Of a stretch of 64,000 nt of DNA, positions 1 to 64,000 are shown in pieces (position 1 is the stretch's first letter; the number at the start of each line of letters is the position of its first letter). The notes under the pieces are model-generated. The model ran no database searches and was not told the origin of the DNA. It was given only the letters and a program-made list of their open reading frames with translations. The stretch covers positions 155,932,001 to 155,996,000 of the forward strand of contig NC_086097.1 of NCBI RefSeq assembly GCF_963921235.1. Direction: 5' to 3'. The stretch is from Mobula hypostoma. Taxonomy: Eukaryota. A program made the translations under genes and the position numbers.

Positions 1-599
1 TTTAAGATGATTGCTGGTACCTTCAAATTCTTTATAGTTTCTAACTTGCCGAAGTAGTGAAATTATTTCATTTTTGCTCCTGGCCATTTCTGGCATCTCA
101 ACGAATGAATGCTCAAAAACACAGTGAGCAAAACAGTTCTGAATTGTCTTATTGCTTATATCTCACTAACTAACTGTGACAAAAATCATTGCTTTTTGAA
201 CACAAACACAAACAAATGACAAACGAGAAAATGTGCAGATACTAGAAATCCAAGCAACACACACAAAATGCTGGAGGAACTCAACAGGCCAGGCAGCAGC
301 TATGGAAGAGTACAGTCGACATTTCAGGCCGAGACCCATCATCGAGACACTGACGTTATTTAAAAACTGTTGATTCTGACAGCAGTGTAGTGTCTAACAG
401 CCACACAAGTGCATGTAACTAACACTAGTTAGAGGCTGTTCGGCAACAGTCTCCCATCCCAGTTAAGCAGCCTGTAGTGTCCCAAATAAACCAAGGGAAT
501 TCTGACTATTTTCTCAATTAGTTTGTGTCCTTTAAGAGTTGTTCCAAAGAAGTGGCTGCCCCAACTAACCAATGGCCCAATTAATCGGAATCTACTGTA
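1..599. mobile_element. Right end of a non-autonomous TcMar (Tigger-like) DNA element; left end outside the window
   Basis: Ends ...GGCCCAATTAATCGGAATCTACTG followed by TA (598-599), i.e. a CAGTA-type terminus with a TA target. No ORF. Interrupted by a PLE fragment at ~219-348. Only one end is visible. Confidence 0.45.
219..348 (-). mobile_element. Penelope-like element 3'/pLTR fragment with decayed hammerhead motif
   Basis: CACACAAAATGCTGGAGGAACTC...GGCCAGGCAGCA..., shared with the GIY-YIG-linked termini elsewhere in the window. Minus strand reads ..CGATGA-TGGGTCTCGGCCT-GAAA-TGTC-GACTG (313-348). Confidence 0.75.
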
Positions 600-4429: not shown

Positions 4430-4950
4430 TCACAGGAAATTCTTCAGATGCTGGAAAGATTGAGCCACACACAAAATGCTGGAGAATCTCAGTAGCTCAG
4501 GCAGCATTTTGGAGGAAAATTAACAGTCACTGTTTTGAGATAAGTCCTTTCATCAGGACTGCAAAGAAAGGGGACAAAAAACACAGTAAGAAGATGGGGG
4601 TGGGGGTTGGTGGGAGGAGCAGCACAAGCCGGCAGGTGATAGGTGAGTGAGAGGGAAGGTAGGTGGGTGAGGGGAGTGGGGGATGATATGAAAAAAACTA
4701 GAGGTGATAGGTGGAAGAGGAAGAGGGCTGAAGACAAAGGAATCTGATAGCAGATGAAAGTGGAGTAAAGGGAAGAAGATGGGCAAGCAGACAAAAGGGA
4801 AGAGCAGGTCATGAGGGTGAGGTAGGAGAAGAGAAGGGGTAAGAGGGGAATCAAAATGGGGAAAAAGAATGAAAAAGGAGGGATGATAGAAGCTAGAGAA
4901 ATCAATATTCATGCCATCTGGTTGGAGATGGAGTGTGAGACAAACATGAG
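4430..4950 (-). mobile_element. PLE 3' fragment (purine-rich UTR plus pLTR with decayed hammerhead at 4524-4561)
   Basis: Same terminus as the other PLE copies. Minus strand reads CAGTC-CTGATGA-AAGGACTTATCTC-AAAA-CAGT-GACTG. Confidence 0.7.
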
Positions 4951-10227: not shown

Positions 10228-10460
10228 GGGCAACACACACAAAATGCTGAAAGAACTCAGCAGGCCAGGCAGCATCTATGGAGAAGAGTAAACATTCAAC
10301 ATTTCGGGCCGAGCCCCCACATGAAGACCCTGATGAAAGGTCTCTGCCTGAAAAGTTGACTGTTTACTCTTTTCCATAGAGTCTGCCTGGCCTACTGAGC
10401 TCCTCCAGTATTTTGTGTGTGATGTTTTGGATAGCCAGAATATGCAGATTTTCTAATGTT
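10228..10460. mobile_element. Fold-back (palindromic) PLE-terminus insertion with 13-bp TSD
   Basis: Inverted arms of the PLE terminus. TSD TGTTGAGCATCCT at 10215-10227 and 10461-10473. Confidence 0.85.
10325..10362 (+). ncRNA. Degenerate minimal hammerhead ribozyme
   Basis: CTGATGA (10330-10336), stem II AGG/CCT, GAAA (10350-10353), then AGTT-GACTG. Stem I and stem III are damaged. Confidence 0.6.
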
Positions 10461-10983: not shown

Positions 10984-12055
10984 CACGAGAAATCCTAAGC
11001 AACAGACACAAAATGCTGGAGTTCAGGCAGCATCCATGGAAATGTAAGAAATCGACGTTTTGGGCTGAGATCTTTCTTCAGGACTGGAAAGGTACAGGGA
11101 AGATGCCAGAATACCAAGGTAGGGGGAGGAGAAGGAAGATAGCTAGAAGGTGATAGGTGAAGCCAGGTTTGGTAGGAAAGGTAAAGGGATGGAGAGAAAG
11201 GAATCTGGTAGAAGAGGAGAGTGGCCCATAGGAGAAAGGGAAGGTGATAGGCAGGTGAGAAGAGGTAAGAGGCCAGAATGAGGAATAGAAGAAGAGGGGA
11301 GGGGAAGGGAATTTTTTATTACTGGAAGAAGAAATTGATATTCATACCATCAGGTTGGAGGCTAGTCAGACAGGATATAAGGTGTTACTTCTCCAACTTG
11401 AAGGTGGCCTCATCTTGGCACAAGAGGAGACTATGGACAACATGTTGGAATGGGAATGGGAATTGGAATTCAAACATTTGGCCTTCGGAAGTTCCGCTTT
11501 AGGCAGATGGAGCTGAGGTGCTTGACAAAGCGAACCATAATTTACCATGGGTTTCAAAAATGTAGAGGAGGCTGCATTGGGAGCATCGGCCACAATAGAC
11601 GACATCAGCAGATTTGCAGGTGATATGTTGCCTCACCTGGAAGGACTAATTGGTGCTCAAAATGCAGGTGAGGGAGGAGGTAAATGGTCGGGTGTAGAAT
11701 GGCTGCTTGCAGGGATAAATGCTGGGAGAGAGATTAATGGGGGGGGCGGAATGAATGGACAACGGAATCATGGAGGGAGTGATCCCTGTGGAATGCGGAG
11801 GTGGGGCGGGGGGGGGAGGTAAAGATTTGTTTGGTGGTAGGATTCCTTTGGAGATGGTGGAAGTTGTGTAGGATGGTGTGTTGGATGCAGAGGCTCATGG
11901 GGTGGTAGGTAAGAATAAGAAGAACTCTATCACTATTAAGGCGGCGGGAGGGTAGGGTGAATGCAGATGTTCAGGAAATGGGGGAGATTCGGCTGAGGGC
12001 AGCATCAATGGTGGAGGAAGGAAAATCCCGTTCTCTGAAGGAGGATCTCTCTGAT
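10984..12055 (-). mobile_element. PLE 3' fragment with GIY-YIG remnant
   Basis: Minus strand encodes decayed ..HSHSNM..CQDEATFKLEK..LQPDGMNI and ENGIFLPPP / GFSFLHH regions. Terminus carries CAGTC-CTGAAGA...AAAA-CGTC (11049-11086). Confidence 0.75.
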
Positions 12056-14274
12056 GGGGATGCCACCAACTCTCATCTTCACCGGTCTGCCAGCCCAGCA
12101 AATAACCATGGATGTCCTTCATTCCACTTCCAAGTCACTGGCCTTCAAACACAAAGAAGCATCCTAGACTCTGGAAGACCTCTAATTCCCTCATATCACT
12201 GTTCCTAAAACCCTGACCCCAACTCCCTGCTTTTCCTGAAAACCATTCCTACAAATCAAAAAACAACTAAGAGAAATTAAGCTTGAGCCACGATGTCAAT
12301 GGAGACTGCAGTTCGGAGCCATCTAGATTAACAATATAGTCTTATTATGGATAGCTAGTGTGGGTTTGTGTAGGACAGGTCATGCCTCATGAGTCTGATT
12401 GATCAAACATAGCCATTGTGGAGACTGACAAAGTACTGTAGATTATGGTTTCAGCCTTTCAATATAAACAAAAATTAAATTCTGGAGACCAGACTTCCAT
12501 TCTTTTATCAGAAGATAATATGTAGGTTTGCTAAATTAAGATGAAAGGAGAAAGACATCATCACCAAGATTGAAGGTAGAAAAGGATTGATGCAACATAG
12601 AATTGGTAGATATGCTGGAAGCTGAGGAAGTCTGCCATAATGTTCTGATCCACAGATTGATGTTGCCTTAACTGCTAAACATAGTCTACCCACAATCCTC
12701 TGCTAAGTGAGAGGATAATGAGATGTGTAGTCCAATCTTTCTGAAAATCCCACAACAACGTACTCTGCAAGTGAACAAACAGGGAATTAAGGCAGCACAA
12801 TCAGAAATATCACTATAATTGAAAATGCTGTTTACAGCTCAAGGATGTTGTAACTGCAAGGAATCCATGTGCCACGGAGGAATGCACAGATGATTTAAGT
12901 CCACCTAAAAGAATATTCCCCCAGTCTCTTTCTCTCTACGCCCTTCCTTATGCATTCAGAATTATATAAATTCTGTGAACAAAAGGTGGTTGAATTAATA
13001 TCAACTAACCCAGATGCTAGTGCTTGATGATGTCAAGTTCCTCTTTTTTGAGCCCGAAGGAGGTAAACAATTAGGCATTCTTAAAGAACACAGCAAAAAC
13101 AACATAAAAACTGGAGTAGTTGCTACTCCAAAACTTCTACAGGGAACGTTGGAAGAACTCCAACTGTCAGTTTCACTGCTGGAGAGAATTAAAGAGTTAA
13201 AATATCAGGTATTAGTCTTTCACTGTAACATAGGACATAGAGCAGTGCAGTGCAGTACAGGAACAAACCCTTGAGTCCACAATGTCTGTGTGACTATGCT
13301 GGCAACTGAAACTAACCATAAATGCTTGCGCATGCTCTGTCTCCCTCCATTCCCTGCCTTTATCATGCCTCTCTAAAAAGCTCTTTAACATTGCTATTTT
13401 ATCAGCTACTAATACTGTTTGTACATGGCAGGGTGTTTCAGACACCTACCACTTTTTATATTTAAAAAAACATTTTGTGTGACTGTATTTTACTGATATC
13501 CTATATGTACCTTGTGCTGTGCATGACTATTGACACTGTTCATTGCACCTTGGCCCCGGAGTAACGCTGTTTCTGTATTCTAGAGTATTCAAGTATGGTT
13601 GAGTGACACTTGAAATTGAACTCGAAATAAAATGTTTTACCCTCTAGTGTTTGACATTTCCAACCTTCTTTCACATCATCCAGTACAAAGTCCACAGAAG
13701 AGGCTATGCAAGTGGGGGGCATGCACCTATCTCAGCAGGAATGAGATTGGTGAAGACGAACAGGTCACTGCTGCTACTGTGGCTCTCCAGGACACTTCTG
13801 GGTATCATGTCCCAAGCGTCCAGTAAGAAGATAGCTGTCAGTAAGAAGGGGAGTTCTGGAGAGTTGGTTCTCTCTGCAAGCATCTTCCCCTGATTGAGAA
13901 TTGCTCCCAACTTTCCTGTTGTGGGGGTCCCAGATTCATGAGCTTCAGGCATTTATTGACTCAGGAGCAGCTGGTAACCTCATGGATATCACACAGGCTT
14001 AAACATTGGGAATTCCTTCTCAATAATTGAGAGAGAATATTGATGTCAATGCTCTGATTGATAATCCACTGAGCACCGGAAAGATCCACCTTTCAAAGGT
14101 ACCCTTCCAACTTGCGCTAGAGGACAACCATAGGGAGCAGCTCTTCTTCTATCTTGTTGATTCATCTGAACTACTACTGGTGTTGAGATAGCTTTCCCTG
14201 GCTATCTTGCACAACCCACAGATTGATTAGTCCTTAAAGGTGCTCCAAGAATATGGAGTGGCATGCCCATCTTC

Positions 14275-14592
14275 CTCATTTTCTACTCTGGCCTTTCACC
14301 TTTTCTCTCCCACCTATCACTTCTCCCTGGGCCCTTCCTCCATCTCTTTCTGCTTCAATCCACTCTCCTCTTCTATCAGTTACCTTCTTCTCCAGTCCTT
14401 TATCTTTCCCATCCACCTGGCTTCACCTATTACCTTCCAGCTAGCCTCTTTCCCCTTCCCCGAGCTTCTTATTCTGGTGCTTTCCCCCTTCCTTTTCAGT
14501 CCTGAAGAGAGGTCTCAGCCTGAAGTGTTGACTGTTTGTTCAATTCCACAGATGCTGCCTGACCTGCTGCTCCTCCAGCATTTTGTGTGTGA
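14275..14592 (+). mobile_element. PLE 3' fragment inserted in the chromovirus
   Basis: Pyrimidine-rich UTR, then CAGTC-CTGAAGA-GAGGTCTCAGCCT-GAAG-TGTT-GACTG (14497-14534) and CTCCAGCATTTTGTGTGTG. Confidence 0.75.
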
Positions 14593-16789
14593 CGCCTGTC
14601 TACCTGATTGGACCCTGTCAGCATTTTCCCTGTGGTACCATCTGCTAGTGTGGACCTGTCCAGTGTTCCAGCTGAATATGCTGACCTTCTTGAGGTCTTC
14701 AGTAAGATGAAGGCACCTCCCTGAATCCACACTAGCCACTTGACTGTGCCATTGACCACTTATCCAGTTCTAGTCCTCCCTGGGACCAGCTCTGTGCCCT
14801 CTCTCTTCCTGAAGCAGTGGCTATGGAAGAACACATCCATCAACCTCAACAGCAAGAGTGTTCTTTTTTTCTGAGTAAGAAGGATCGCAAGCTCAGTCAC
14901 TGTATTGATTATTGGGCCTTCAATGATATCACGGGGGAAGAAGCGCTACCCTCTTCCTCTATTTGCCTCTGCGTTTGAACGTCACCAGGGAGCAACCACA
15001 TTCACTAAGATAGATATCTGGGCAATGCTTGCAACCTGGTTTGCATCCAAGTAGAAGATAGCATTCAACATCTCCATTGGCCTCTGTGAGTACTTTGTGA
15101 TGACTATTGGTCTGGTCAGCTCCCTGCTGATTTTCAGGCCCTGTTCAACGATGTGCTCTGGGATGTGTTGATTCAGTCTGGTTTTGTGTTTTTGGACAAC
15201 ATTCTCATCTATTCCCATTCTCACCAGGAACATGTCCAGAATGTCCGGAGGGTGCTTAGATGGCTCCTTGAGATCAACCTTTATGCCTAGCCAGAGAACT
15301 GTGAGTTCCACACAGAGTGTCGTTCTTGTGCTACATCCTTACTTCTTCCAGTGTTCGAATGGACCTATGTAAAGTTCAGACAATCACAGAGCAGCCCAAA
15401 CCACTGACTGTCAAACAGGTGAGGCTTCACGGGGTTTACAAACGCTTATCGCTGCTTCAGGAGAAACTTAGTTCCATTGCAGCCCCCATAAATGCACTCA
15501 CCAAGAAGACCTGTGCAGGATTCCTTTGGACAAGTGAAGCAGTCCAAATGTTCTCTGAGCTAAAGTGATGCTTCACCACTGCTTCAGTGCTGCAACATCT
15601 AGACCCATCCCAACCATTCATCGTTGACGTCGATGATTTATATGTTGGCTTTGGAGCAATTTCTCTCCCAGTGCTCTTCTGTAGATAATCAGCTGCACAT
15701 ATGTGCTTTTCTTTCCCATCGCTTGACTCCTGTAGAGTGAAACTATAATGCTGGGATCCGAGAACCTCTGGCTGACAAGGAAGACCTGGAAGCATGGCGA
15801 CGCTGGCTGTCAAGCCCATTGGGCTCTCTTCTTCAGCAGTTTAATTTCACCCTCTTCTACCATCCTGGCAACCATCCATCCAAGGCCAGTTCTCTCTCCC
15901 ATCAGTTTGACATCTCTGAGGGCAATGCCACTCCAGAGATTATCATTCTTCTCTCATGCATAGCTGCTCCAGTGATGGGAATAGAAAGAGAGGTGAGGGC
16001 TGCCTAACAGTTAGATCCAGGCCCAGTGGTGGACTCCCCAACTGGCTGTTTGTTCCTGCTGCTGTGTACCTCAGAATGAAGTAGGGTCCCTCCTCCTGTC
16101 TGGTTGGCCATCTGAGGATTCAGCAGAACCTGGAGTTTATAAGGAGATGGTTTTGTTGATCATCGATGCATGTCCTAAGATGTCCACTACTTCGACTCTC
16201 CCTGTTCCATTTGTGCCCAGAACAAGGTGTCATGTCAGCACCCTGCTGCCTGTGCGCCACCATCCCTGGTCACACCTTTCCATGGATTTTATCACTGATT
16301 TTCTTCCATCAGATGGGAACAGTACCATTCTAGTAGTTGTGGACCAGTTCTCCCAAAGCAGCCCATTTCATTGTTATCCCCTAGCTCCTGTCAGCTTGTC
16401 ACACTGCCACTCTCATGGATCAGCATGTGCTCAGCCTGCATGACTTCCCTCAGGACACAGTATCCGATCAAGGACTACAGTTAATGTCCCACTCTTAGAA
16501 GGCTTTCTGTTCTCTTTCGGGAGCCACAGCCAGCCTCTCATCAGGATTCCACTCCCAATTGAATGGCCGGACAAAGACAGTGAATCACAGTCAAAGTTCA
16601 AAGTAAATTTATTAACGAAGTACCTGTATGTCACAATATACAACCTTGAGATTCATTTTCTTATGGGCATTACAGTAAATGCAAGAAACACAATAGAATC
16701 AATGAAAGACTGCACCCAACAGGATTGACAAACAACCAATGAGCAAATATAATAATTCAGAAAATTAATAATAATAATTAAAATACAAA

Positions 16790-27822: not shown

Positions 27823-27849
27823 TTGCTTCAAATGAATTCAAGGTGACTC

Positions 27850-29150
27850 CAATTCTCAGAGCTACCTGGACTATTCCTCTTCCCATCCTGTCTCTTGCAA
27901 AAATGCCATCCCCTTCTCACAATTCTTCTGTCTCTGCCACATCTGCTCTCAGGATGAGGATTTTCATTCCAGGACAAAGGAAATGTCCTTTTTTAAAGAA
28001 AGGGGCTTCCCTTCCTCCACCATCAACTCTGCTCTCAAACGCATCTCTCCCATTTCACGCACATCTGCTCTCACTCCATCCTCCCGCCACCCCACTAGGG
28101 ATAGGGTTCCCCTTGTCCTCACCTACCACCTCACCAGCCTCTGGGTCCAACATATAATTCTCCATAACGTCTGCCACCTCCAATAGGATCCCTCCACTAA
28201 GCACATCTTTCCCTTCCCCCCCCCCCCCCGGCTTTCTGCTTTCCACAGGGATCGCTCCCTATGCGACTCCCTTGTCCATTCGTGTCCCCCCCCATCCCTT
28301 CCCACCGATCTCCCTCCCAGCTCTTATCCTTGTAAGCAGAACAAGTGCTACACATGCCCTTACACTTCCTCCCTCACCACCATTCAGGGCCCCAGACAGT
28401 CCTTCCAGGTGAGGCGACACTTCACCTGTGAGTCAGCTGGGGTGATATACTGCGTCCGGTGCTCCCGATGTGGCCTTCTATATATTGGTGAGACCCAACA
28501 CAGACTGGGAGATCATTTCGCTGAACACCTACGCTCTGTCCGCCAGAGAAAGCAGGATTTCCCAGTGGCCACACATTTTAATTCCACATCCCATTCCCAT
28601 TCTGATATGTCTATTCATGGCCCCCTCTACTGTCAAGGTTGGAGGAACAACACCTTATATTCCATCTGGCTAGCCTCCAACCTGATAGCATGAACATTGA
28701 CTTCTCCAACTTCCGTTAAAGCCCCCCTCCCCTTCTTACTCCATCTCTTATTTACTTACTTACTTATTTATTTATCTATTTATTTGTTTGTTTGTTTATT
28801 TATTTATTATTTTTTCCCTTTTTTTCTCTCTCTGTCCCTCTCACAATAACTCCTTGTCTGCTCTCCATCTTCCTCTGGTGCCCCCGTCCCCATTTCTTTC
28901 TCCCTAGGCCACCTGTCCCATGATCCTGTCATATCCCTTTTGCCAATCAACTTTCAAGCTCTTAGCTCCATCCCTCCCCCTCCTATCTACTCCTATCATT
29001 TATGATCTCCCCTCCCCTCCCACTTTCAAATCTTTTACTATCTCTTCTTTCAGTTAGTCCTGGCGAAGACTCTTGGCCAAAAATGTCGACTGTGCTTCTT
29101 CCTATGGATGCTGTCTGGCCTGCTGCATTCCACTAGCATTTTGTGTGTAT
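27850..29150 (+). mobile_element. PLE 3' half (RT thumb, GIY-YIG, UTR with TTTA repeats, terminus)
   Basis: FFKERGFPSSTINSALKR..RVPLVLTYH and a GIY-YIG ORF. Terminus with decayed hammerhead TAGTC-CTGGCGA..AAAA-TGTC-GACTG (29055-29092). Confidence 0.88.
28409..28693 (+). pseudogene. GIY-YIG endonuclease domain of a PLE (frameshifted at the 3' end)
   Basis: FTCESAGVIYCVRCSRCGLLYIGETQHRLGDHFAEH..PVATHFNSTSH: VIY...YIGET signature with CxxC and conserved His residues. Confidence 0.85.
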
Positions 29151-30865
29151 GGCTTCAATTCTTTGACATTTATGGAATGGGTTTTCAGAAGCAGATTGGG
29201 TTACATTGACATATATAGCCATGGGCACCTTTCCATATCTAATGACTTCAGTGAATATCTGGAGAGTTACATAAGGTAGGTTTGAACTAATATTGTATGC
29301 AACATTTTCAACTAAAATCAAAACAGTTGCCAATGCATTTTTACACCAGTTTAATCAGAATAAAATACTTGAAAAGAAGAAAGTAGATAGCATAAATAAT
29401 TCATTTATTATGTTGGTATGTTGTTCACAGAAAGGTAGCTAAAGCTCTTGTTTATGGAATAAATGTCTCTGTTTTTGTTTTCTACCAGAGATATTAACTT
29501 CCATCCATCTTTCTGCAGCTGAAAGCATAAGCAAATAATACTAAACTGATCAGATAGTCAAGATAAAACCATTCAATTTTCTCAACTGGACACATGCTTT
29601 ACAAAGTTCAGAAGGGGTGACAGAAATTCAACTGAACCATATTAAATATTTTCAATTTTTTAAAAATTCAGATTATCCCTGAAATAAAATATTCTAATGT
29701 GCGATTATATGCTTAAGATAAAGTGAATGGATTTAGTTTATAAAGAATATGGAATGATTTGAACTTCATTAAAATATCATGACACTACTATTTTTTTTCC
29801 AGTGACATGACACATTTCAGAACACAGGTGCCATTTCCACCTGTGACGTGAGGGCAGGCTACGACAAAGAAATGTAACACTCCGGGTAATTGCTGTACCG
29901 CTGCCTTTATCAAATCACCAGAGTCAAATGCTACTGTCACATCAGCATCTTTAAAATTTATTCATGCCTAATACTGGTGTCAGAAAGACTCCAGAAGTTG
30001 AAGGAGGTAAAGTCCCCAATGTAATGCATCAGTCATTTTTGTACCCTGCATCTTGTACCACTTCATTCTATTTAAATGACAGTATTATAAACACAGTGAC
30101 CCAAACTTTGCAGTCAGCACTGAGCTCTTCTAACTTGCCACTGATTCCCAAAAAAACCTGTTCTTACTTGCAAAGCATTGTTTCTTCAGCTGGAACATTG
30201 GAAGTGGATGGCTCCATCCATCATGGCAAGCACAGAAAGTTCCTTGTCACAATCATACAAGGGGAAGTCAGAAAAATGCCTGCCCATTAAACAGCTGGAA
30301 CACTTTGACAAAGAGCTCAGCCATGCCCTGAGGTTTGTTTGCTGTCAAAGCTGCCAAAACATTCGTATGCATTTAAGGATAATAAAAAATTTGTCAAACT
30401 AATGAAATATCTTAATGCTATCAAGATGGGTAAAAGGGAAACAAAAAAATGTGAAGACTGCTTGAAATCCTAAAAGAAAGAAAATAAAACAAGTTTAGAA
30501 CATTGCAGTTAGTAAGGTTAATTAAGATTACTACACAACTAAAAGTTATGCTCAGTGAGATAAACAGAAGAATTTTTTGCAAGATCTTACGAATTGGCGG
30601 AGGAGTTATGAGGGAACAAATGGACTAATGCTGTTTTGATTTAATGCTCTGTTTTCCTCAATAGTTCAAAACCAATTATATAGACACCTACTGGAACATT
30701 AAAAATCCATATAGCCATAATTCTGAACTGCATTAAGAACTTCTTCCGAATTCTAAGAGTTACACAAAGTGGTCTCATTAGAAATTAAGTCTTTGTGGAA
30801 ATGTATTTGTGTTAAATGCAAAGCACTAACCACATTTTGAAGAAGTAGCTAATCCCATTGACGAA

Positions 30866-32160: not shown

Positions 32161-32167
32161 ATATGAA

Positions 32168-32490
32168 ACTCAAAGTTCAAAAGTTCGGTCAATTTATTAT
32201 CAAAGTGCATATCTGTCACCATATACCACCATGAGATTCATTTTTGTACAGGAATTCACAGTAAATACAAAGAAACACAATAGAATTGATGAAAAACTGC
32301 ACACTGCAAAATCGACCAATGTGCAAAGACAATACACTAAGCAAATACAAAAAGCAAAAAATAATAATAATATTAATAAATAAATAAGTGTTATTATTGA
32401 GAACAAGAGTTGTAAATTCCTTGAATAACACCATAGGTTGTGGAATCAGCTCAGTGTGGGGCAAGTGAAATTATTGCCTCGGGTTCAGGA
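32168..32490 (-). mobile_element. Rex1-type 3' tail
   Basis: Matches the tails at 8420-8740 and 16590-16760. Confidence 0.65.
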
Positions 32491-34520: not shown

Positions 34521-34741
34521 TACATATAAAATGCTGGAGGAGCTCACAGGCCAGACAGCATCTATGGGAAAGAGTAAACAGTCGATGTTTCAAGCCGAGA
34601 CCCTTCATTAGGAGTCCTGATGTAGTCTTGGCCCGAAACATCGACTGTTGACTCTTTTCCATAGATGCTGCTTGGCCTGCTGAGTTCCTCCAGCATTTTG
34701 TGTGTGTTGTTTTGATTTCTACCATTGCAGGTTTTCTCTCG
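34521..34741. mobile_element. Fold-back PLE-terminus insertion with ~15-bp TSD
   Basis: Inverted arms meet at AGGAGTCCT (~34610-34618). TSD ACCATGTCTATGCTG (34506-34520) / ACCATGCCCATGCTG (34742-34756), 2 mismatches. Confidence 0.85.
34613..34647 (+). ncRNA. Degenerate minimal hammerhead ribozyme, back-to-back with a minus-strand copy at ~34579-34615
   Basis: Plus strand AGTC-CTGATGT-AGTCTTGGCCC-GAAA-CATC-GACT. Minus strand CTAATGA-AGGGTCTCGGCTT-GAAA-CATC-GACTG. Confidence 0.6.
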
Positions 34742-36480: not shown

Positions 36481-38243
36481 GCATTCTTCACTATCCTATC
36501 TACCTGTATTGCCACGTTCAGGGGCATGAGCCCCAATGCCCTTTTGTTCATCAGTACTCCTCAGTACCATATGCCATATCTGTGTCTTATTTCCCTGAAT
36601 GCATCTCCTCACATTTGCTGGGATCTGCCGTCATGCCAATCAACTTTCCATCAGATCTATATCCTGCAACAGCTTCAACCTTCCTCATTTCCATTAATTT
36701 TTAATGTCATCCACAACCATACCTCCTAAACTCACATCCAAGCCTAATAATATATATCTCAAACATCAAAAGCCCCAGCACATTTCCTTGGTGTCACAGA
36801 CCTCCAATCAGAAAAAAAATCCTTCCATCACCACTCTCTGTCTCCTCTCACCAAGCCAACTGTGGATTCAATTAGCCTTAGATCCAATCTATCTTTATGC
36901 TAATTCCCTCTAATAGGAGGCCTAAAGTATAACCCAAAAAAGTGATTGCATTTCTCTTATTTCTTGATGCAATGGGTATGGCTTCATAGCTTGATTCTTC
37001 TAATACTTTCTTCTAAGTACCATTATATTTTCCTTAATCTGTTGTACACCTGCCCTTTCTCCTTTGCAACACTCTCTATCACATCTAGAACTTTTATGCC
37101 CCAGAATATTAAACTAAAGACGTGCCTTTCCCTCGGCAATAATATTGTAATTTCAGGTGCTGATCCATGCTCTAAACTCATCTGATTTGCCTGTGAGATT
37201 CTGTGCATTAAGGTAAATGCAAATGAATATTAACAGCCCTCACATATTTCCTAATCTGTACAAACAAGAGAAAATTTGCAGATGGTGAGAAATCCAAGCA
37301 ACACACACCAAAATGCTGGAGGAACTCAGCAGGCCAGGCAGCATCTATGGAAAAGAATAAACACTTGACCACATTTCAAACTGAGACCCCGCATCAGGAC
37401 TGGAAAAAATAATGAGAAGTTAGAGCAAGAAAAGGGGAGGGGAAGAAAAAGTACAGGGTGGTAAGTGGTAGGTGAAATCAGGAGGAGGAGGGTGAAATAA
37501 AGAGCTGGGAGGTTGGTAAGTGAAAGAGGAAAAGGGGCAATCTGATAGGAGATGGTAGAATATGGAAGGCCAGGTGGAGTAGAGGGAGATTATGGGCAGG
37601 TAAGGAAATAAGGTGAGAGAAGGAAATGGGATTGGGGGAATGGTGAAGGAGGAGGGGACAATTACCAGAAGTTTGAGAAATCCATGTCCATGCCATCAGT
37701 TTGGAGGATACCCAGACGGAATATAAGGTGTTGCTCCTCCCACCTGAGTGTGGCCTCATCACAGTAGCAGGGAAGGCTGTGGAGTGACATGTCGGAATGG
37801 GAATGGGAAGCAAAATTGAAGTGGGTCCCCACTGGGAAATTCTGTTTTTTCTGGTGGATGGAGCATAGGTGCTTGGAGAAGCAGTCTCCCAATCTATGTC
37901 GGATTTACAGGAGGCCAGGCTGGGAGCACCAGATACAGAAGATGACCCGTACAGACGCAGAGGTGAATGTTGCCTCAGCTGGAAGAACTATTTGGGGCCC
38001 TGGATGGTACTGAGGGAGGATGTGTAGGGCCAGGTGTGGCAGTAGATGGGCTCACAAAGGTAAGTATCGGGAGGGCGATCAGTGGGGAGTTGCATAGGAA
38101 GTGACCCTGTGGAAAGCAGAAAAGTGGGAGAAAGGAAAAGTTGTGCTTGGTGATGGGATCTTGTTGGAGATGATGAAAGTTAAGAAGAATTATGTGCTGG
38201 ATGCGGAGGCTACTGGGCTGGAAGGTGAGGACAAGAGGAACCC

Positions 38244-38441
38244 TGTTGTGTACATAGCCTTTTTACACAACTATGTTATTAATAAAAATGCTGGAGACGG
38301 CAACTAAGTTTCAACGTTCTTTACTGGTAGAATCTGAACTTGGCACACACATACAGATCAATGCGCGCCTAATAGCACATGCAACCACATGTTACTAAAA
38401 CATAAAGTAGTCCCTTATTATAATGTAGGGTACACGGTACA
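38244..38441 (-). repeat. 3' LTR (198 bp)
   Basis: Direct repeat of 44205-44403. Adjacent polypurine tract AATAAAAGGGGAGGAG on the minus strand (38442-38457). Confidence 0.93.
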
Positions 38442-41400
38442 CTCCTCCCCTTTTATTTTAATAGTGTATCAACTTTTTTTTACTGGGGCACTATGCTAAA
38501 CTAATATTTTTACTATTAACATACAAATGCCTACCATTTGTTTACAAATTATAGCAAAGTAGCTTAATAATATCAAATTATAACAAGTCTTTTTTTCCTT
38601 TTGGTCTAAGACCCATTTAGAACTCAAGTCTCTGGGGAAGTCTTCTCTGCCTCTGCAGGTAACAACTGTCCTCAAATGTTTGCTTGGGGAATGAGTCTCC
38701 ACAGGTACGTCAGGTGGGTCATCAGCACTGATGACAGGCTTATCTGTAGGCGAGGCTGATGTGGTCACTTCAGGAGTGTTTGCTTTGCTTCAACGTCAGG
38801 GGAGTCCAGGCAAAGTGTTGTTGTGTTTTTCACCTGAGCATCCAGGATTTGGTCCACATGATGTCTCCATACGTTCTCTCCCACCCCCACTGTATACATC
38901 AGTGGCCCATCTATAGTGGAAATTGTACCCAGCTGCCACTTTTCAGTCTGGTAATCATGTGCAAGAACTGACTGTCCCACACTGAAGCTCCGTGTTGACT
39001 TAGCATTCAAGTGTTTGAACTGTCTTTTTTCCACATCACGCCGTACATCTGGTTTCAGAAGATCCATGCGGGACCTCAGATTCCTGTTTATAAACATCAT
39101 TGCTGGAGTCTGATTAGTGGTTGCATGTACTGCATTATGATAGGCAAGGAGGAAGTTGTCTATCTTTTGTTGCAGTGGTCGATTTTCACTGTCCATTGCC
39201 TTGGTGGCTTTCTTGAATGTCTGCACAAATCTTTCTGCCAAGCCATTTGCAGATGGATGGAAAGGGGCAGATGTAAAGTGCTTGATTCCATTGTTCTTCA
39301 TAAAACTTCGGAATTCTTCAGAGACAAATTGTCGTCCATTGTCTGTGCGGATTTGCTGTGGTATGCCATTCCTGGTGAACATGGCCCTCAGAACTGTAAT
39401 GGTCATTTCCGATGTGGTTGTCTTCATTTTGATGACCTCTGGCCATTTGGAATGTGCATTGACGGCGATTAAAAAGATAAGAGTCCATGAATGGTTTAAC
39501 AAAGTCGAAGTGCACTTGTTGCCATGGTGATGAGGGCTGCTCCCATAGATGGAGAGGGGCTTGTGATGGTGTGTCCTGGATCTTTTGACATCCAGAGCAG
39601 TTCTTGGTCAAGTCCTCAATCTGTTTATCAATTCCTGACCACCAGACATAGGCACAGGCAAGACTTTTCATCTTCGTGGTACCCAGGTGCCCCCTGTGCA
39701 GTTCCTCCAGCGCTCTGGTGTGTAGCTTGGGAGGAATCACAACTCGTGAACCACACATTACTGTTCCCCGACACACTGACAACTGCTCCTTCTTGGCTGA
39801 GAAGGCTGGAAACAGTGTGTTACCACATGTTGGCCATCCCTTTACCGTGATATCATACACTTTTGACAACATAGGGTCATTGCGTGTCTCTTTTTCAATG
39901 AGGCTGTTTGTTACTGGTAATTGTTCAACTATTGTGTGAAAGACCTCTGCTGAATCCATTTGTGTAGTTATCTCTGAAATCGGCAGTGGTAAATGTGACA
40001 AACCATCTGTGTTGCCATGTTGCTTGGTCACCTTGTGATCAATGTCATACATGTGACCCCCTAAGAAAAGGGACCATCACTGCAGCCTTTGTGCTGTCAT
40101 CACTGGAACACCTTTTCTTGGGTTGAAGATTGACATGAGAGGCTGATGGTCAGCCAAGAGGGTAAACTTTTGACCATACAGGTAGTGACTGAATTTCTTG
40201 ACTCCCCACATGAGGCTTGAGGCAAAGGCTATTGGTCTTTCGGAGCCATCTGGAAACTTGTGCGATAACACAGCTCCTACCCCATGGGGTGAAGCATCAC
40301 AAGCCAGTTGGATAGGTAAGGAGGGGTCAAAGTGCGCGAGCACCCCTTCCGGAGTTATGAGTTTTTTAGTTTCTTGAAACACTTTCTCACAGCTCTCAGT
40401 CCACTTCCATTGTGTCCCTGTTTGTAATAGTGCATTTAGTGGGTGTAGGACTGTGGACAGGTCAGGCAAGGCCTTATGGTAATAGTTCACTGATCCAAGA
40501 TAAGCTCTCAGCTCAGACACATTTTTGGGCGGTGGTGCCTTAAGCACTGCTTCTGTCTTGTCTTGAGACATGTGTAAGCCATCCTTGTTGATCACATGCC
40601 CACAGTATGAGATTTCCTTTTTGAAAAACTCACATTTCTGTCGATTAGCTCTGAGCCCATATTCTCGTCACCTGGTGAGCACTTGTTCAGGGCTAGAAAG
40701 ATGTTCGTCGTCGTCTTTTCCGGTGACAATGATGTCATCCAGGTAACACTGAGTCCCTGGAATCCCCTGCAGAACCTGGTCCATTGCCCTTTGTCAGATT
40801 GCAGCAGCTGATGCTATCCCAAACACCAACCTGTGGTACTGGTAAAGCACTTGGGGAGTATTTATTGTCAGGTATTTCCATTTGGAGATAAGCCTGGGCC
40901 AAATTGATTTTTGTGAAATGTTCCCCTCCTGACAGGGAAGCAAAGATGTCCTCAATACAAGGTAGCGGATGCTGTACTGTGCAGAGAATTGGGTTAACAG
41001 GGACTTTAAAGTCTCCACATATGCACACCTTGCTTGGGTTTCCTGGTTTTGTGCTGGAGGTTTTCTTCATCACTGGAAAAATAGGTGTGGTCCATTCACT
41101 CCAATCCACCTTTGACAGGACCCCAGTCTGCTCCAGATTTTTCAGCTCTGCCTCTACTGTAGGATGGATTGCATATGGCACTGGTCTGGCTTTGTGAAAT
41201 TTTGGACTTGCATTTTCCTCAATCTCAATCTTTGCCTTTACACCTGAAGTGTTCCTATTCCTTTTATGAACACTTCCTCAGAGTCAGCAAGTATTTGTGA
41301 CAGTCTCTCAGATGTAGCCTTGCTGCCCGCCTTTGCTGACACAACTAATGCCTTGATGGTGTGTCAATCCAACTGAATTTTCCTGAGCTATTCATGTCCC

Positions 41401-42372
41401 AGCAATGGTGGTCCTCCATTTTTGAGTACATAGAGATTCAGCTGCTGTGTTTTGTCTCCGTAGGTCATTGTCACTTTAATTTTGCCTTTGGGATGCACTT
41501 TCTGTCCTGTGTAAGTCTTTAGCAGTAGTTTAGTTCATTTCAGAGGTATGTGAGAAAACAGTCGTTTGTAGTTGTGTACAGAGATCACTGTTAAAGCTTA
41601 GCCTGTGTCCAACTCCATTTTCAGTCTCGCACCTGCCACTTGTGGAGTGATCCATATTACTCTTCGATCATCTGTCTTTTTCACGCTGTGAAGTTGCAGA
41701 CAAGACAATTCACTTTTGTCTGAGTCGTTTTCATCAGAACTGTTTTCTTTCATTTTGTGTACATTGTTGTATTTTCCTTTCTGGGGTTTCTTGTTTCTCT
41801 GCATTTTGTCCTTTTTCTGCTGTTTACTAGCTTTGCATACTCTGCCAGTGTGGCCCTGTTTGCCACAGTTTCTGAATTCTTTGTCTTTAAACCAACAGTC
41901 CTCAGGGTCATGTGACCTGTTCCCACAATGTTAACATTTCTTTCCTTCATTTCTGTTCAGTGACATTTTATTTGTAGCATATTCCAGAGAGTTTTGTTGT
42001 ATCTCTGAAGCACCCCGTGCTGCTATTTTCAATAATATTCCAACGTTCAGCGCCTTCTCTAATGTAAGGTCTTTTTCACACAGGAGCTTCCTCTGTGTGG
42101 TTTCACAGTACATGTCCCTCAATGTGTCTGATAGACCAGCTCCAAATTGACAATATTCTGATAATTTGCGCAATTCAGCACAATATTCAGAAATGCTTTC
42201 ATTTTTGCTCTGATTCCATTTGGGGAATTTAAATCTTTCAGCAATGACCAGTGGTTTGGGGTTTAAATGCTGTAGGAGAGTGTCTACTATTTGCTGGAAT
42301 GTTTTATCAGTTAGCTTTTCAGGGGTTAACAAGCTCCGTAGCAGCCCATATGTTTTTGCTCCCACTGGATAA

Positions 42373-43843
42373 GGCTACGTCCACACTAGACCGGATAATT
42401 TTGAAAAAGCCGGTTTCGCGTAAAAACGATAGGCATCCACACCAGGCATTTTTGAAAATACCTCCGTCCACATTAAAATGGGTATTTGGGTAAATCTCCT
42501 CCTACTGGGCATGCGCAGGACACATCTACAGAAAACAAGTGAAGAGGAAACGGTATACTTGGTGCGCGTTTGTCCGGTTACAGACTAGAAAAACTTAAAA
42601 GGACAAATGACAGACAGCTGTTGGCTCTCGCGCAGGAGGACTTAAAACTAAAAAAAACAAATACCGGAGCTTATGGAGGCAACTGACAGGGAGTTCATGG
42701 ACAGTATGACCCGGCTGGCGATGAACATTGAAAAACTGACTAACTCTGTCGCAGAGGGATTTGCAATGATGAGCAATATGATGGCTCCCCCCAAGTACTT
42801 TTCACCGCTACAATACCAGCCCCACAGTCACGACAATAGCTAAACATACGGACACACAGACCCCCGGTGGCCCCACCAGCATCTTCCCCACCCCCACAGA
42901 GGGCTCACCCTGGAAGCATTTCCTACAGCCATAGTCTCTTCACCGATGAAAGGGACGACAGCTACAACTAAATGCAATAAGGCTTGTTACTGGGCAAAAG
43001 TGAAATTTGCTGTTACCTCATTTGTTTACCTTTACTTTTGCCATGTCTTTCTGTATTATGTTGCTGTATTTAACACGTGCAATAAAACGAGTTACCGGGC
43101 AAAAGTGATTTTATTTTTACCTGAGTAAAAGTGAAACTTACAATTTTCCTTTTTTGGCCTTAACATTTTCACGTCTATGCCAAACATAAGCTACTACTTA
43201 AAAATGACATTTTGGAAGTAATGACAATTGCATCTATTGAATGTTTGCACAGGCAATACATTAAAAAATCACCTTGTTAAATGTATAAAACATGTCTGCA
43301 TCAGTATTATCTAGTATTTCCATACAATGTTACATTGGGCTGTTACTCATCTATTGTCAGATATCAAGCAACACACATCAAAGTTGCTGGTGAACACAGC
43401 AGGCCAGGCAGCATCTCTAGGAAGAGGTACAGTCGATGTTTCAGGCCGAGAACTAGAGATCTCTTCCTAGAGATGCTACCTGGCCTGCTGCGTTCACCAG
43501 CAACTTTGATGTGTGTTGCTTGAATTTCCAGCATCTGCAGAATTCCTCTTATTGTCAGATATTGATGTTGTGGTGTTGGAGGTTGTGTTGAAGAAAACAA
43601 TGAAATGCCGCGCTGCTACCACTATCGTTCCGGCGCGTCATGACAGTGTTTTTAAAAAGAGCCGGTTACCCTGTACACACTACACCGGCCATTAGGTGTT
43701 TTCAGATTTATTCACCCTGGAGAGCGTTTTTGAAAAGCTCCATTTTCGGGGGGAGGAAAACGTCATTTCAGTGTGGACAGAGGGTCAAAACGGAGAGAAA
43801 ATGCTTCGGTTGCAGATTTATCCGGTCTAGTGTGGATGTAGCC
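42373..43843. mobile_element. Non-autonomous PIF/Harbinger element (1471 bp including a nested insertion) in Gypsy gag
   Basis: 26-bp TIRs GGCTAC[G/A]TCCACACTAGACCGGATAA (1 mismatch). TAA TSD at 42370-42372 and 43844-43846. Confidence 0.92.
43365..43549. mobile_element. Fold-back PLE-terminus insertion with 13-bp TSD
   Basis: ~60-bp near-perfect inverted arms (CAAGCAACACACATCAAAGTTGCTGGTGAAC...). TSD TATTGTCAGATAT at 43352-43364 and 43550-43562. Confidence 0.9.
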
Positions 43844-44191
43844 TAAGGCGCTGGCTTTCTTTTCATCATTAACCCTATTAGCATCACAATATAACTCCAC
43901 GCTTTCAATGTAAGTTACCCAGTTTTCAATGCCACTATCAAATGATGTAATGGTTCCAATCATCGCCATCTTTGTTATGTTAGTTTAGTCCTGTTATTTC
44001 TTGTTTTCTTTTCAGCCAGCTCCTTGCAGTCACTGCACGTTCCACTTGTCTCACGTGTCCTTTTTGCTAGTGTAATGAGTGCACTCTGTCTAGATGTGTG
44101 TGTCTCTCCTTTTCATCTCCCTTCTCTCTCTTCTTCTTCGTGTCGTTATCAACTAAAACATGGCGTTCCGATAAGCTGTAGGTTCATAATT

Positions 44192-44201
44192 CTCGTCACC
44201 A
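44192..44201 (-). promoter_or_regulatory. Primer-binding site, probably for tRNA-Ser(GCT)
   Basis: TGGTGACGAG lies 3 nt inside the LTR. It is one CpG-type transition from TGGCGACGAG, the complement of the vertebrate tRNA-Ser(GCT) 3' end (..CTCGTCG-CCA). Confidence 0.7.
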
Positions 44202-44204
44202 ATT

Positions 44205-44403
44205 TGTTGTGTATGTGGCCTGTTTACACAACTATGTTATTAATAAAAATGCTGGAGACAGGAACTAAGTTCCATGGTTCTTTATTGGTAGAGTCCAAAC
44301 TTGACACACACATACGGATCAATACGCGCCTAATAGCACATGCAACGACGTGTTACTAAAACGTAAAGTAGTACCTTATTATAATGTAGGCTATATGGTA
44401 ACA
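44205..44403 (-). repeat. 5' LTR (199 bp)
   Basis: Direct repeat of 38244-38441; about 23 substitutions plus 1 indel by manual count. Confidence 0.93.
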
Positions 44404-45320
44404 AACCCTATCCCTGGTGGAGTGGCAGGAGGATGGGGTAAGGGCAGATTTGTGTGAAATGGAAGAAATGCAGGTGAGGGCAGCATTGATGGTGGAGGAA
44501 GGAAAGCCCCTTTCTTTGAGGAAGGAGGACATTTCTATGTAGTGTAGGAAAAGTTGAGGAGTGATACCAGTGAAGGATTGGAACATAGACTGTTCCATGC
44601 AACGAACAAAAAGGCAGGAATAGCTGGGGCCTATGTGAGTGCCCATGGCTACACCTTTGGTTGGAAGGAAGTGGGAGGAGCCAAAAGAGAAATTATTGAG
44701 AATGGTGACCAGTTTCACCAGACAGAGGAGAGTTGTGGTTGGGTCTGTTGTCTAAAAAGAGTGGAGAGCTTTAAGGGTCTCTTGATGGGGCATGGAGGTG
44801 TTTGGGGACTGGACGTCCACGGTGAAAATGAAATGATTGGGGCCAGGAGCTTGCGATCATTGAAAAGATCAATGTCATGTGATGTGTCACCGATGTAGAT
44901 AGGAAGGGACTGAACTGGGGAAGATGAAACAGAGTTGAGGTATGTAGATATAAGTTTGGTGGGGCAGGAACAAGCATAAACAATGAGTCTACCTGGAGAG
45001 GAAGGTTTGTGGATCTCGGGTAGGAGTTAGAAACAGGAAGTGCAGGGTAAGGAAACTATGAGGTAGGTAGCAGTGGACGGGAGATACCCAGAGTTAATAA
45101 GGTCAGTGATGGTGCATGGAACAATGGCCTGGTGTTCCTTAGTGGGGTCCTGTTCGAGGGGTGAGAAAGAGGAAGTGCCTGAGAACTGTCTCTTTCAGCT
45201 ATCAAATTCCCAGCTCTTTACTTCACCTCTCCATCTCTCCTGGTTTTACCTATTACCTACCACCTTGTACTTCTTCCTCCCCTCCCCCCATCTTCTTGCT
45301 CTGACTCCTCATCTTTTTTC

Positions 45321-45358
45321 CAGTCCTGATGAAGGGTCTTGGCCCAAAACATTACCTG
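45321..45358 (+). ncRNA. Degenerate minimal hammerhead ribozyme in a PLE pLTR
   Basis: CAGTC-CTGATGA-AGGGTCTTGGCCC-AAAA-CATT-ACCTG. The core GAAA is mutated to AAAA at a CpG. Confidence 0.65.
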
Positions 45359-45624
45359 TTTTCCCTTTTCCATATATGCTCCCTGGCCTGCTGCTTTCCT
45401 CCAGTATTTTGTATGTTCCTAATCTGCCTCTGTCTGCCCTACATACTAGGCTCGTAGACCAATCCGCAACATCGGAGTCATATTAAATAATTACTCTAAT
45501 CTTCACCTTTAGTGTGTGTCATTTGAACCTGAACAGAAACACAACATATAACTAATGAACAATTGCTTTCATAAGTCGATAGAAAGAAAGCAGAAAATAA
45601 AATAAAAAGTGAGACAGAACTGTC

Positions 45625-50390: not shown

Positions 50391-53240
50391 CCCTCTATAT
50401 GAAACATCCTCTCCATATCCATTCTATCAATATTCGATAGGTTTCAATGAGATCACCCCTCATTCTTCTTAATTCCAGTAAGTACAGGCCCAGAGTCATC
50501 AAACACTCCTTACATGTTAACCCTTTGATTCCTGGGATCATTCTCATGAATCTACCCTGGAATCTCTCCAATGCCAGCACCTTTTCTTAGATAAGGGGCC
50601 CAAAACTGCACACAATATTCTACCTGCTGTCATATCAATGCCTTATAAATCCACAGCATAACATAATTTCTTTTGTATTGTAGTAATCTTAAATCAAATG
50701 CTAACATTGCACTTGCCTTCATTACCACCATCTCAACCTGCAAGTTAAGATTTAGGGAATCCTGCACAAAGACTGCTAAGTAGCTTTACACTTCTGATTT
50801 CTGAATGTTCTCCCTCTTCAGAAGATGATCCATACTCTAATTTCTTCCACCAAGTGACATGGCCATACTCTTTCCTACACTATATTCCATCTGCCACTTC
50901 TTTGCCCATTCACCCAATCTGCTTAAGTCCTTCTGCAGACACTCTGCTTCCTCATCACTACCTGCCCCTTCACCTATCTTCATAGTGTCCAAAAACGTGG
51001 CCACAAAGCTATAAGTTCCTTCATCATGAACATAAAACATGAAAAAAGCAGTCCCAGTACCGACCCCTACAGCACATTACAAGTCACCAACAGCCAACAA
51101 GAAGAGGTCACCTTTAGTCCTACACTTTTCCCCTTGCTAATTTTTTTATCCATGCCTGTACCTTTTCTGTCATACCATGGACTCTTATTTTGTTGACAAG
51201 CCTCATGTGTGACATCTTGTCAAAGGCCTTCTGAAAGTCCAAATAAACAACATCCACTGACTTTCCTTTGTCTATCCTGTCTGTTTTTTCCTCAAAGAAT
51301 TCCAACAGATTTGTTAGGCAAGATTTACCCTTTAGAAAACCATGCAGACTCTGGCCTATTTTGTCATGTGCCTCCAAGTAGCCTGAAACTTCAACCCTAA
51401 TAAAATACTCCAACATCTTTCCATCCACTGAAGTCAGGCTAATTGGCCTGTAATTTCCTTTCTTCTGCTTCACTCCCTTCTCAGAGTGATATTTGCAATT
51501 TTCCAGCCCTCCAAACTCATTACAGAATCAAGTGATTCTTAAAAAATCATTACTCTTCAATCTCTTCAGCTACCACTTTCAAAACCCTGGGGTGTAGTTC
51601 ATCTGGTCCAGGTGACTATCTTACTTCAGACTTTTTGGCTTCCTCAGCACCTTCTCCTTAGTAATAGAAATGACACTCTCTTTTGCCCTCGACACACTCA
51701 AATTTCCGGAAATCTACTAGTGTCTTCCTCAGTGAAGACCGGTGCAAAATACTTATTAAGTTTGTCTGCCATTTCTTTCCTACCCCCATTACTACCTCTC
51801 CAGCATCATTTTCCTATCATCTGATATTCACTCTTGTCTCTTTTGTTCTTTATATATCTGAAAGAAACTTTTTGTATCCTCTTTGATATTACCTTCATAT
51901 TTCATCTTTTCTGTCTTTATGGCTTTTTGATTGCCCTCTGTTGGTTTTTAAAATCTTCCCAATCCCTTACCTTCACACTAGTTTTTGCAATATTATATGC
52001 CCTTTTCTTTTGCTTTTATGCTGCCTTTGACTTCCCTTGTTAGCCTCATTTGCCTCACCCTCCTGTTAGAATACTTCTTCGTCTTTGGGATGTATTTTTC
52101 CTGTGCCTTCCACATTTCCCCTAGAAACACCAGTCATTACTGTTCTGCTGTCATCCCTGCTCATGTCCATTCCAATCAACTTTTTGCAGCTCCTCTCTCA
52201 TGCCTTTGAAATTCCCTTTACTCATCTGTAACACCGGTATTTGTGATTTTAGCTTCTCCTCAAACTGCAGGGTGAATTCTATTATATTATGATCAATGCT
52301 TCCTAAGGGTTCGTTTACCTTAAGTTCCCAAATTAAATTTGGTTCATTACGCAACACCCAATCAAGAATTGCTTTTTCCCTACTCAGCACAAACGTAAGC
52401 TGGTCTAAAATAAAACATCTCTGAGGCATTCTACAAGTTCCCTCTCTTGGGATCAAGTACCACCTAATTTTCCAAATCACCTCTATATTGAAGCCCTCTA
52501 TGATTGTCACAACTCTGCACTTTTTCCATGCCTTTTCTATGTCCGTTGTAATTTGTAGCCCACATCGTGGCTACTATTTGGGGGTCTGTACTTATATAAC
52601 TCAAATCAAGGTCTCTTTACCCTTGCAGTTTCTTAACCCTACCCACAAGAATTCTACATCTTTTCATCCTATGTCACCTGTTTCTATGGATTTTATTTTA
52701 TTTTTTTTTACCAATAATGCCATTGTTTTACAGTGCAGGTGACCAGGGTTTAATTCCCACTGCTGCCTGTAAGGAGATTTTATGTTCTACCCGTGGTCAC
52801 ATGCTTTTCTTCCGGGTGCTCCAATTTCCTCCCACAGTCCAAAGACATCTGGTTGGTATTTCAATTAGCAATTGTAAATTGTCCAGTGATTAGGCTAAGC
52901 TTAAAATGGGGGATTGCTGGGTGAAGCAGCAGCTTAAAAGGTTGGAAGGGACTATTGCAAGCTGAATCTCAATAAATAAATAAACCTCCGCTTGTGCTTT
53001 CCCAAGCCTATTCTTACTTAAGCCTGTTGAGCCAAAGCCTGTCCACTCTAACACTGGCCCACTCACACAATGGCTGCTCCAGTTACACCTCCTTTCTTTT
53101 CATTGGCCACACAATGTTTTCAGCCTGCTGAAGAGCCGAAAGCACTTTTTGATCTTTTAAAGACTCATAATGCATTACGAACTAGTGACCTCTCACACTG
53201 ATTACAGCCTGCTGAATAAGAAGAATTACAAGAAGCAACT
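50391..53240 (-). mobile_element. Degraded CR1 (ORF2 remnants to ~52710, probable 5'UTR remnant ~52985-53240)
   Basis: NYRPISLTS, YLDFQKAFDK, DHNIIEF. The UTR motif AAGCCTGTTGAGCCAAAGCC..CCACTCT matches 63527-63557. Confidence 0.8.
52718..52984 (+). mobile_element. tRNA-derived V-SINE (HE1-like)
   Basis: B-box-like GGTTTAATTCC, V-domain-like TCCGGGTGCTCCAATTTCCTCCCACAGTCCAAAGAC and an (AATA)n tail. Confidence 0.75.
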
Positions 53241-59522: not shown

Positions 59523-59722
59523 GCATAGAAACCATAGAAAAACTACAGCACAGAAACAGGCCTTTTGGCCCTTTTTGGCTGTGCCGAACCATTTTCTGCC
59601 TAGTCCCACTGACCTGCACACAGACCATATCCCTCCATACACCTCCCATCCATGTATCTGTCCAATTTATTCTTAAATGTTAAAAAAGAACCCGCATTTA
59701 CCACCTCATCTGGCAGCTCATT

Positions 59723-62518: not shown

Positions 62519-62520
62519 AT

Positions 62521-63483: not shown

Positions 63484-63556
63484 AAAACTTACCGGAACCT
63501 ACCCTGGCCTCTGCCTGTTCTCGCCGAAGCCTGTTGAACCAAAGCCGTCCCACTCT

Positions 63557-64000
63557 GATGAAAACAGACAGGATCTCCCAGTAGCCACCCACTTCAACTC
63601 TGCCTCCCACTCCCATTCAGATATGTCCATACATGGCCTCCTCTACTGCCATGATGAGGCTAAACTCAGATTGGAGAAGAAACACCTCATATACCATCTA
63701 GGTAGTCTCCAGCCCCTTGGTATGAACATAGAATTCTCCAACTTCCGGTAATTCCCTCCCCCTCCCTTCCCCTATCCCTATGTCACCCTGCCCCCTCCCC
63801 CAGTTGCCTATCACCTCCCTCATGGTTCCGCCTCCTTCTACTACCCATTGTGTTTTCCCCTATTCTTTCTTCACCTTTCCTTCCTATCACCTCCCTGCCT
63901 CCCCTTCCCCCACCCCTTTATCTTTCCCCTTACTGGTTTTTCACTTGGAACCTACCAGCCTTCTCCTTCCCACCCTTTCCCCACCTTCTATATAGGGCCT
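63557..64000 (+). mobile_element. PLE fragment (GIY-YIG C-terminus plus pyrimidine-rich UTR), running off the window
   Basis: QDLPVATHFNSASHSHSDMSIHGLLYCHDEAKLRLEKKHLIYHLGSLQPLGMNIEFSNFR. Confidence 0.85.

Follow-up and report, generated by a model that had tools for sequence, protein, structure and literature searches.

A minimal type I hammerhead motif in the terminal repeats of an abundant, probably Neptune-clade Penelope-like element of the ray Mobula hypostoma

Why do so many Penelope-like element (PLE) termini within a short stretch of the Mobula hypostoma genome carry the same small motif, and could that motif have cut RNA? The stretch analysed here in full (the window) spans 64 kb. 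A reading made from its sequence alone had flagged the copy at 45321-45358 as one of about ten PLE termini with a minimal hammerhead ribozyme, and had proposed that the ancestral RNA of this high-copy family self-cleaved. Very probably, these termini share a minimal type I hammerhead motif that sits in the terminal repeat of a highly abundant PLE, likely of the Neptune clade. The window copies have accumulated mutations and are decaying, and cleavage by the ancestral motif would likely have been weak, in dimeric form and helped by the protein of the element.

The motif is present at all ten sites of the sequence-only reading, exactly or within a few bases. An nhmmer profile was made from eight copies, which match it by construction, and gave 14 matches in the window (13 at E<1e-7 and one weak, at 2083-2180, E 0.0026), six of them to non-seed copies; on 20 shuffles there were no matches at E<0.01. 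A minus-strand arm at 10231-10327, absent from the earlier list, was recovered by the profile. The 13 strong termini correspond to nine insertions, because there are three palindromic pairs and because 37299-37402(-) and the flagged copy at 45321(+) are the two ends of one insertion. The weak match at 2083-2180(+) is a far older relative of the terminus. The features are collected in Table 1.

Table 1. Penelope-like copies and associated features in the window (positions are those of the window; a dot marks features without a single strand)
Feature	Position	Strand	Details
Solo mini copy, hammerhead and long tail, beginning near the hammerhead 5' edge	219..348	-	
ORF end, UTR, hammerhead (4524-4561) and tail	4464..4927	-	Profile and coding remnant
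Head-to-head mini insertion centred on the hammerhead 5' edge, with a one-sided long tail	10228..10460	.	Perfect 13-bp duplication (10215, 10461)
5'-truncated PLE with coding remnant and sense hammerhead (11049-11086)	11000..12045	-	
UTR, hammerhead (14497-14534) and tail	14266..14594	+	Profile match
Best-preserved 3' PLE copy, second subfamily: RT thumb, CX4CXXC linker, GIY-YIG with two Cys, UTR, hammerhead (29055-29092)	27848..29151	+	
Head-to-head mini insertion centred on the hammerhead 5' edge	34521..34741	.	13/15 duplication (34506, 34742)
Left target-site duplication TTCCTAATCTG	37248..37258	+	
3' part of the split PLE: RT thumb, linker, GIY-YIG, 260-nt UTR, sense hammerhead (37362-37402), long tail	37259..38243	-	
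Gypsy-type LTR retrotransposon inside the PLE	38244..44403	-	5-bp duplication AACCC at 38239 and 44404
Asymmetric head-to-head mini insertion, second subfamily, within the Gypsy element	43363..43549	.	11-bp core duplication (43352, 43550)
Reverse transcriptase remnant of the same split PLE, 5'-truncated, frameshifted, internal deletion	44404..45189	-	
Inverted 5'-truncated terminal-repeat copy (pyrimidine-rich UTR, hammerhead, short tail)	45190..45415	+	226 nt
Flagged hammerhead copy, decayed minimal type I	45321..45358	+	G12>A, stem III palindrome lost, stem I 3/5 pairs
Right target-site duplication TTCCTAATCTG	45416..45426	+	
GIY-YIG end and UTR of one more copy, interrupted by the window end ahead of its hammerhead	63560..64000	+	

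The flagged hammerhead lies on the plus strand beside a reverse transcriptase (RT) remnant on the minus strand because it belongs to the inverted 5' partner of a single insertion. This insertion, 37259-45415, is flanked by a perfect 11-bp duplication that beats all 300 random zone pairs (best null value 9), and consists of a main minus-strand copy with an inverted terminal copy at its truncated 5' end; the inverted copy abuts the main one and is 78% identical to 37309-37528. The flagged copy differs from the consensus at six of 38 positions, five of the six being CpG transitions, G12>A included, and its predicted cut would fall between 45353 and 45354. The main copy was later interrupted between RT and endonuclease by a Gypsy element (38244-44403), whose LTR parts are 88% identical over 196 nt and which has integrase and RNase H domains as well as gag-, protease- and RT-like remnants. 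A second-subfamily PLE mini insertion then landed within the Gypsy; the PLE family was therefore active both before and after the Gypsy arrived. The PLE, the Gypsy and the mini insertion make up a three-layer age order. At 44535-44540(-), the RT remnant skips from the catalytic motif region to the thumb, with roughly 90-100 codons deleted.

The window also holds other repeats. Long LINE remnants, 64-71% alike and presumably CR1/L2-like when judged by eye, lie at 5385-7749, 19400-22100, 23786-26400, 50400-52570 and 59700-63500, the first with a 757-aa open frame (5385-7655(+)). A dispersed repeat with an A-rich end (D8) has at least four copies, 8412-8712, 16591-16789 and 32166-32469 among them.

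What kind of element carries the motif? Five coding remnants were mapped in the window with tblastn, and the 64 kb hold no full-length element. The frame 27902-28645 reads through an RT thumb and a CX4CXXC linker into a GIY-YIG domain with two Cys between its motifs. The Pfam GIY-YIG match is below cutoff (E 0.013), and homologues match at E 4e-4 to 8e-4; the proteins nearest to the endonuclease frame are from Hypanus sabinus and M. hypostoma (81-83%), followed by sea urchin (47%). Pfam matched none of eight degraded frames, and a homologue search with the RT frame 44718-45026 found none. In all three copies with a coding remnant joined to a terminus, the hammerhead lies in sense after the ORF stop, behind a UTR that is about 80% pyrimidine and measures 233 nt (copy at 11000), 336 nt (27848) or 260 nt (37259). 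The RT/GIY-YIG remnants, in sense upstream of the motif in these three copies, bear out the Penelope-like identity proposed earlier.

As in Neptune and Nematis PLEs, an RT is followed by a C-terminal GIY-YIG domain with two Cys, with a Zn-finger-like linker between them, and copies show 5' truncation, an adjoining inverted 5'-truncated copy and a tail at one end (PMC8557442). The latter arrangement, a standard product of PLE insertion (PMC8557442) and a feature of endonuclease-positive PLEs, is seen at 37259-45415 and in the three palindromes. These features support an endonuclease-positive PLE as the carrier. A CX2-5CXXC linker between RT and endonuclease is described as a feature of Neptune that is common to Nematis (PMC8557442). 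The clade is likely Neptune, since CX4CXXC marks Neptune or Nematis and vertebrates yielded only Neptune and Poseidon in a recent survey (10.64898/2026.07.22.740005). The ray element differs from the Neptune and Nematis elements described before (PMC8557442) in that it has no evident (TA)n target bias, with four sites showing clear duplications (11-15 bp, unique sequence).

The consensus of the motif was taken from 12 aligned copies, leaving out the weak match at 2083 and the tail-only arm at 43459. Their majority equals the consensus proposed earlier save for one CpG column, and a CpG-aware call matches it exactly. It comprises a 5-bp stem I, CUGAUGA, a 4-bp stem II, GAAA, a self-complementary ACGU in place of stem III (still present in one of the 12 copies) and a GUC triplet. 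Stem II had been read as GGG/CCC; the three G-C pairs stand, but there is a fourth pair, U-G, and A9 is separated from G10.1 by an additional A, a place where the minimal hammerheads (min-HHRs) of other PLEs also have an extra base (PMC4209133). The stem has a 4-nt loop and is closed by G10.1-C11.1. A strict descriptor of minimal type I hammerheads accepts this consensus, which also fits the published one (PMC4209133), in keeping with the anatomy first suggested. Judged by their sequence, the copies carry a known kind of minimal type I hammerhead motif, here in a ray genome.

Might the pattern be a coincidence in the end of a repeat? An Rfam search had been proposed as a check, and a scan of the decayed copies at E<=10 returned 11 matches, none of them to a hammerhead family; its microRNA-like matches are the palindromes, with scores under gathering. 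Likewise, the covariation score of stems I and II among the 12 decayed window copies was reached in 197 of 500 shuffles, as is expected of dead copies, and folding z-scores are near 0 for three single copies. Against these points stand the absence of any descriptor match in 9.6 Mb of shuffled window and the exact fit to the published consensus, at the expected place and in the expected element (PMC4209133). Coincidence is thereby largely refuted, and we give it an almost negligible probability.

No single copy in the window is fully intact, as had been claimed: the strict descriptor found no match on either strand, and none of the 12 single copies passes it. Mismatches against the consensus are as frequent in the hammerhead core (12/115, 10.4%) as in the tail (62/583, 10.6%; Fisher p=1.0), so there is no sign of selection after insertion; CpG positions are mutated more often (38/96). 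The window copies are thus decaying without detectable selection. A second subfamily, which differs directly 3' of stem I (29093-29110(+), 43420-43440(-), 295-312(-)), is also found among loose ends of contigs, and its copy at 29055 has a C at core position 7. A convincing target-site duplication was not found for the copies at 255, 4464, 11000, 14498 and 27848, and the joining of those at 11000 and 14498 into a single insertion was rejected, the candidate duplication being not above chance.

Contigs from beyond the window were also compared. In the DNA run X1, 130,291 contig pieces, a figure that is not a copy number, fall on 37200-38300 at 80% likeness, and the loose ends behind 37363 in 2,419 contigs of that run (agreement 0.64) have an intact core, their majority reading core, stem II, GAAA, palindrome and the start of stem I. 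Three runs guessed to be RNA show the same core with one CpG variant, which is not proof of transcription. The very high copy number proposed earlier is upheld, and the wider consensus, suggested as a check, keeps the catalytic core; a very abundant PLE family with an intact motif in its majority is supported. A metagenome scan gave four related loci, three of which (L001-L003) reach past the stop while L004 ends before it. One of these three, the distant relative L001, whose protein is 44% identical, carries a similar motif some 400 nt past the stop, with stems that differ in sequence yet pair and one extra base in the core; the motif is absent in L002 and L003, which may end too early. At L001:1650-1860, three short spaced repeats lie in the 3' UTR, upstream of the hammerhead-like motif.

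How do the copies come to end at this motif? By analogy with related systems (PMC11167929), the GIY-YIG endonuclease of the element would nick the target, and reverse transcription would begin in the tail 3' of the hammerhead. Even the shortest insertions would then carry a tail and usually a hammerhead, and this start point would account for the motif at so many termini. The inserted copies were likely made from uncut RNA, because they retain sequence 5' of the cut site. Among the 15 joints listed of 343, with low depth on the diverged part, there is no strand-switch joint at the cut site.

Each of the three palindromes is one insertion, flanked by a duplication of 11-15 bp and carrying the long tail on one side. 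The perfect 13-bp duplication at 10215/10461 lies above all 300 random zone pairs (best null 9), and that of the 34.5-kb palindrome scores 9, which equals the best null value of 300 such pairs. At 43363-43549, one arm has half a hammerhead and the other none. The 5' starts of seven short arms, from four insertions, fall at the stem I 5' edge in five cases, in stem II in one and about 8 nt past the cut site in one; none begins at the cut site itself.

Could such short and palindromic copies form a self-propagating, non-autonomous family, retrozyme- or MITE-like, in which the ribozyme is used apart from full-length elements? The centres of two palindromes agree within 1 nt, a few contigs hold short head-to-tail units (the joint 37363 to 37309, tail plus degenerate hammerhead, in 16 contigs of X1), and hammerhead retrozymes are known in one chondrichthyan (10.64898/2026.07.22.740005). 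However, centre, arm end and subfamily vary among the three palindromes, their arms are no closer between two palindromes than within one (77-85%), and a one-sided tail with an inverted 5' partner is what PLE insertion ordinarily produces (PMC8557442); the window has no tandem array. Non-LTR retrozymes share with the ray copies their origin as non-coding units derived from PLE termini and their type I hammerheads, but they are head-to-tail tandems of complete ribozymes, whereas the ray copies are dispersed or head-to-head and none is complete (10.64898/2026.07.22.740005). Of the head-to-tail tandem with at least two complete hammerheads that defines a retrozyme, the window holds not one complete motif, and tandem joints are rare in the contigs. 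We regard a non-autonomous family as highly improbable and take the short copies as ordinary insertions of the PLE.

Would the ancestral RNA have cleaved? Self-cleavage, as first proposed, is predicted for a particular arrangement: in tandem transcripts, two motifs would swap strands, their ACGU palindromes would pair as a 4-bp intermolecular stem III, and the strand-swapped pair would cut after GUC. Dimer cleavage via the palindrome has been described for min-HHRs (PMC4209133; PMC6765202; PMC6155905), which cleave poorly even as dimers (PMC4209133). In a nearest-neighbour folding model, which has no Mg2+ or tertiary contacts, the 38-nt monomer would adopt an inactive fold (-12.7 kcal/mol, 73% of the ensemble) rather than a hammerhead-like one (-10.5 kcal/mol, 2%), and the double hammerhead (-19.9 kcal/mol) compares with -25.4 kcal/mol for two monomers and -33.7 kcal/mol for the best duplex. 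The model thus disfavours the naked double hammerhead. In Anolis, the PLE ribozyme cuts only with the protein of the element and is dispensable for insertion in vitro (PMC11167929); by analogy, cleavage in the ray, if any, was likely protein-assisted.

It is also conceivable that the same element with the same ancestry carries a hammerhead that is vestigial, or that serves as a landmark for folding or protein binding, and that never cuts at a meaningful rate. The folding model, the starts of the short arms (mostly the stem I edge and never the cut site), the normal insertion in vitro of Anolis ribozyme mutants together with the absence of RNA reads ending at the cut site in that study (PMC11167929), and the cleavage of one in nine Xenopus retrozyme dimers (10.64898/2026.07.22.740005) all favour it. 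On the other hand, no core position is lost from the genome-wide majority or from the consensus, which covers two subfamilies, and the same architecture persists in 40 metazoan species (PMC4209133), as would be expected if the catalytic core is under selection where lineages are active. We therefore consider a motif that never cuts distinctly unlikely, and weak, dimeric and protein-assisted cleavage remains our preferred reading.

Why do short arms start at the 5' edge of stem I? One tentative proposal, which we think unlikely, is that this edge would be a true RNA boundary, either a 3' splice site or a transcript start, that reverse transcription from the tail would run up to it, and that priming on both strands of one break would make the head-to-head hammerhead palindromes of about 200 bp. 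If so, the palindromes would map the RNA end of the element at very large scale and show the insertion of uncut RNA. All six UTR-bearing copies have a pyrimidine tract and then a YAG at this edge (e.g. 45321-45323(+)), although the tract is not specific because the whole UTR is so pyrimidine-rich; a donor-like GT overlaps the ORF stop in three of four copies (e.g. 37609-37620(-), 63745-63756(+)). A Hypanus gene model (P0006) runs beyond the last residues of the element into unrelated sequence, a hint that the donor is used, and in Drosophila virilis the stem I edge is likewise where an intron ends (PMC4209133). The 15 joints listed of 343 include none that links the donor-like site with the edge of stem I, at a low depth on the diverged part. 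About 20 nt past the cut, at 45376-45381(+) and in the equivalent tails, a second acceptor-like site (a pyrimidine run and YAG) is followed by an ATG, which could be the ORF start of the next tandem unit.

The closest counterparts are the min-HHRs in the terminal repeats (pLTRs) of metazoan PLEs (Cervera and De la Pena 2014, PMC4209133). These share with the ray motif the type I form, CUGANGA with an extra base, G10.1-C11.1, GAAA, a C15.2-G16.2 pair without loop 3, the 15.2-16.2 palindrome and an NUH triplet, as well as U-rich flanks, mostly solo truncated copies and opposite-strand pairs; the Acropora Neptune and Xenopus(2) rows of their Fig. S3 show a near-identical layout. The ray motif differs in its 4-bp stem II, which is at the short end, in an apparently very high copy number and in its host group, the 56 motifs of that figure including none from a cartilaginous fish. 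In the Poseidon element PAc of Anolis (Frangieh et al. 2024, PMC11167929), too, the hammerhead is followed by a tail that ends at either of two points, in agreement with two internal RT start sites, and inserted copies retain the uncut ribozyme. PAc belongs to another clade, Penelope/Poseidon lacking the linker, and its ORF starts in stem II.

No description of a ray PLE-hammerhead family was found in the accessible literature. The family extends a described ribozyme class to a ray genome, at extreme abundance, and it bears on the role of PLE hammerheads, which may cleave tandem precursors or may be passengers. With so many dated insertions, breakpoints could be analysed statistically and a reliable consensus drawn up for use in a cleavage assay.
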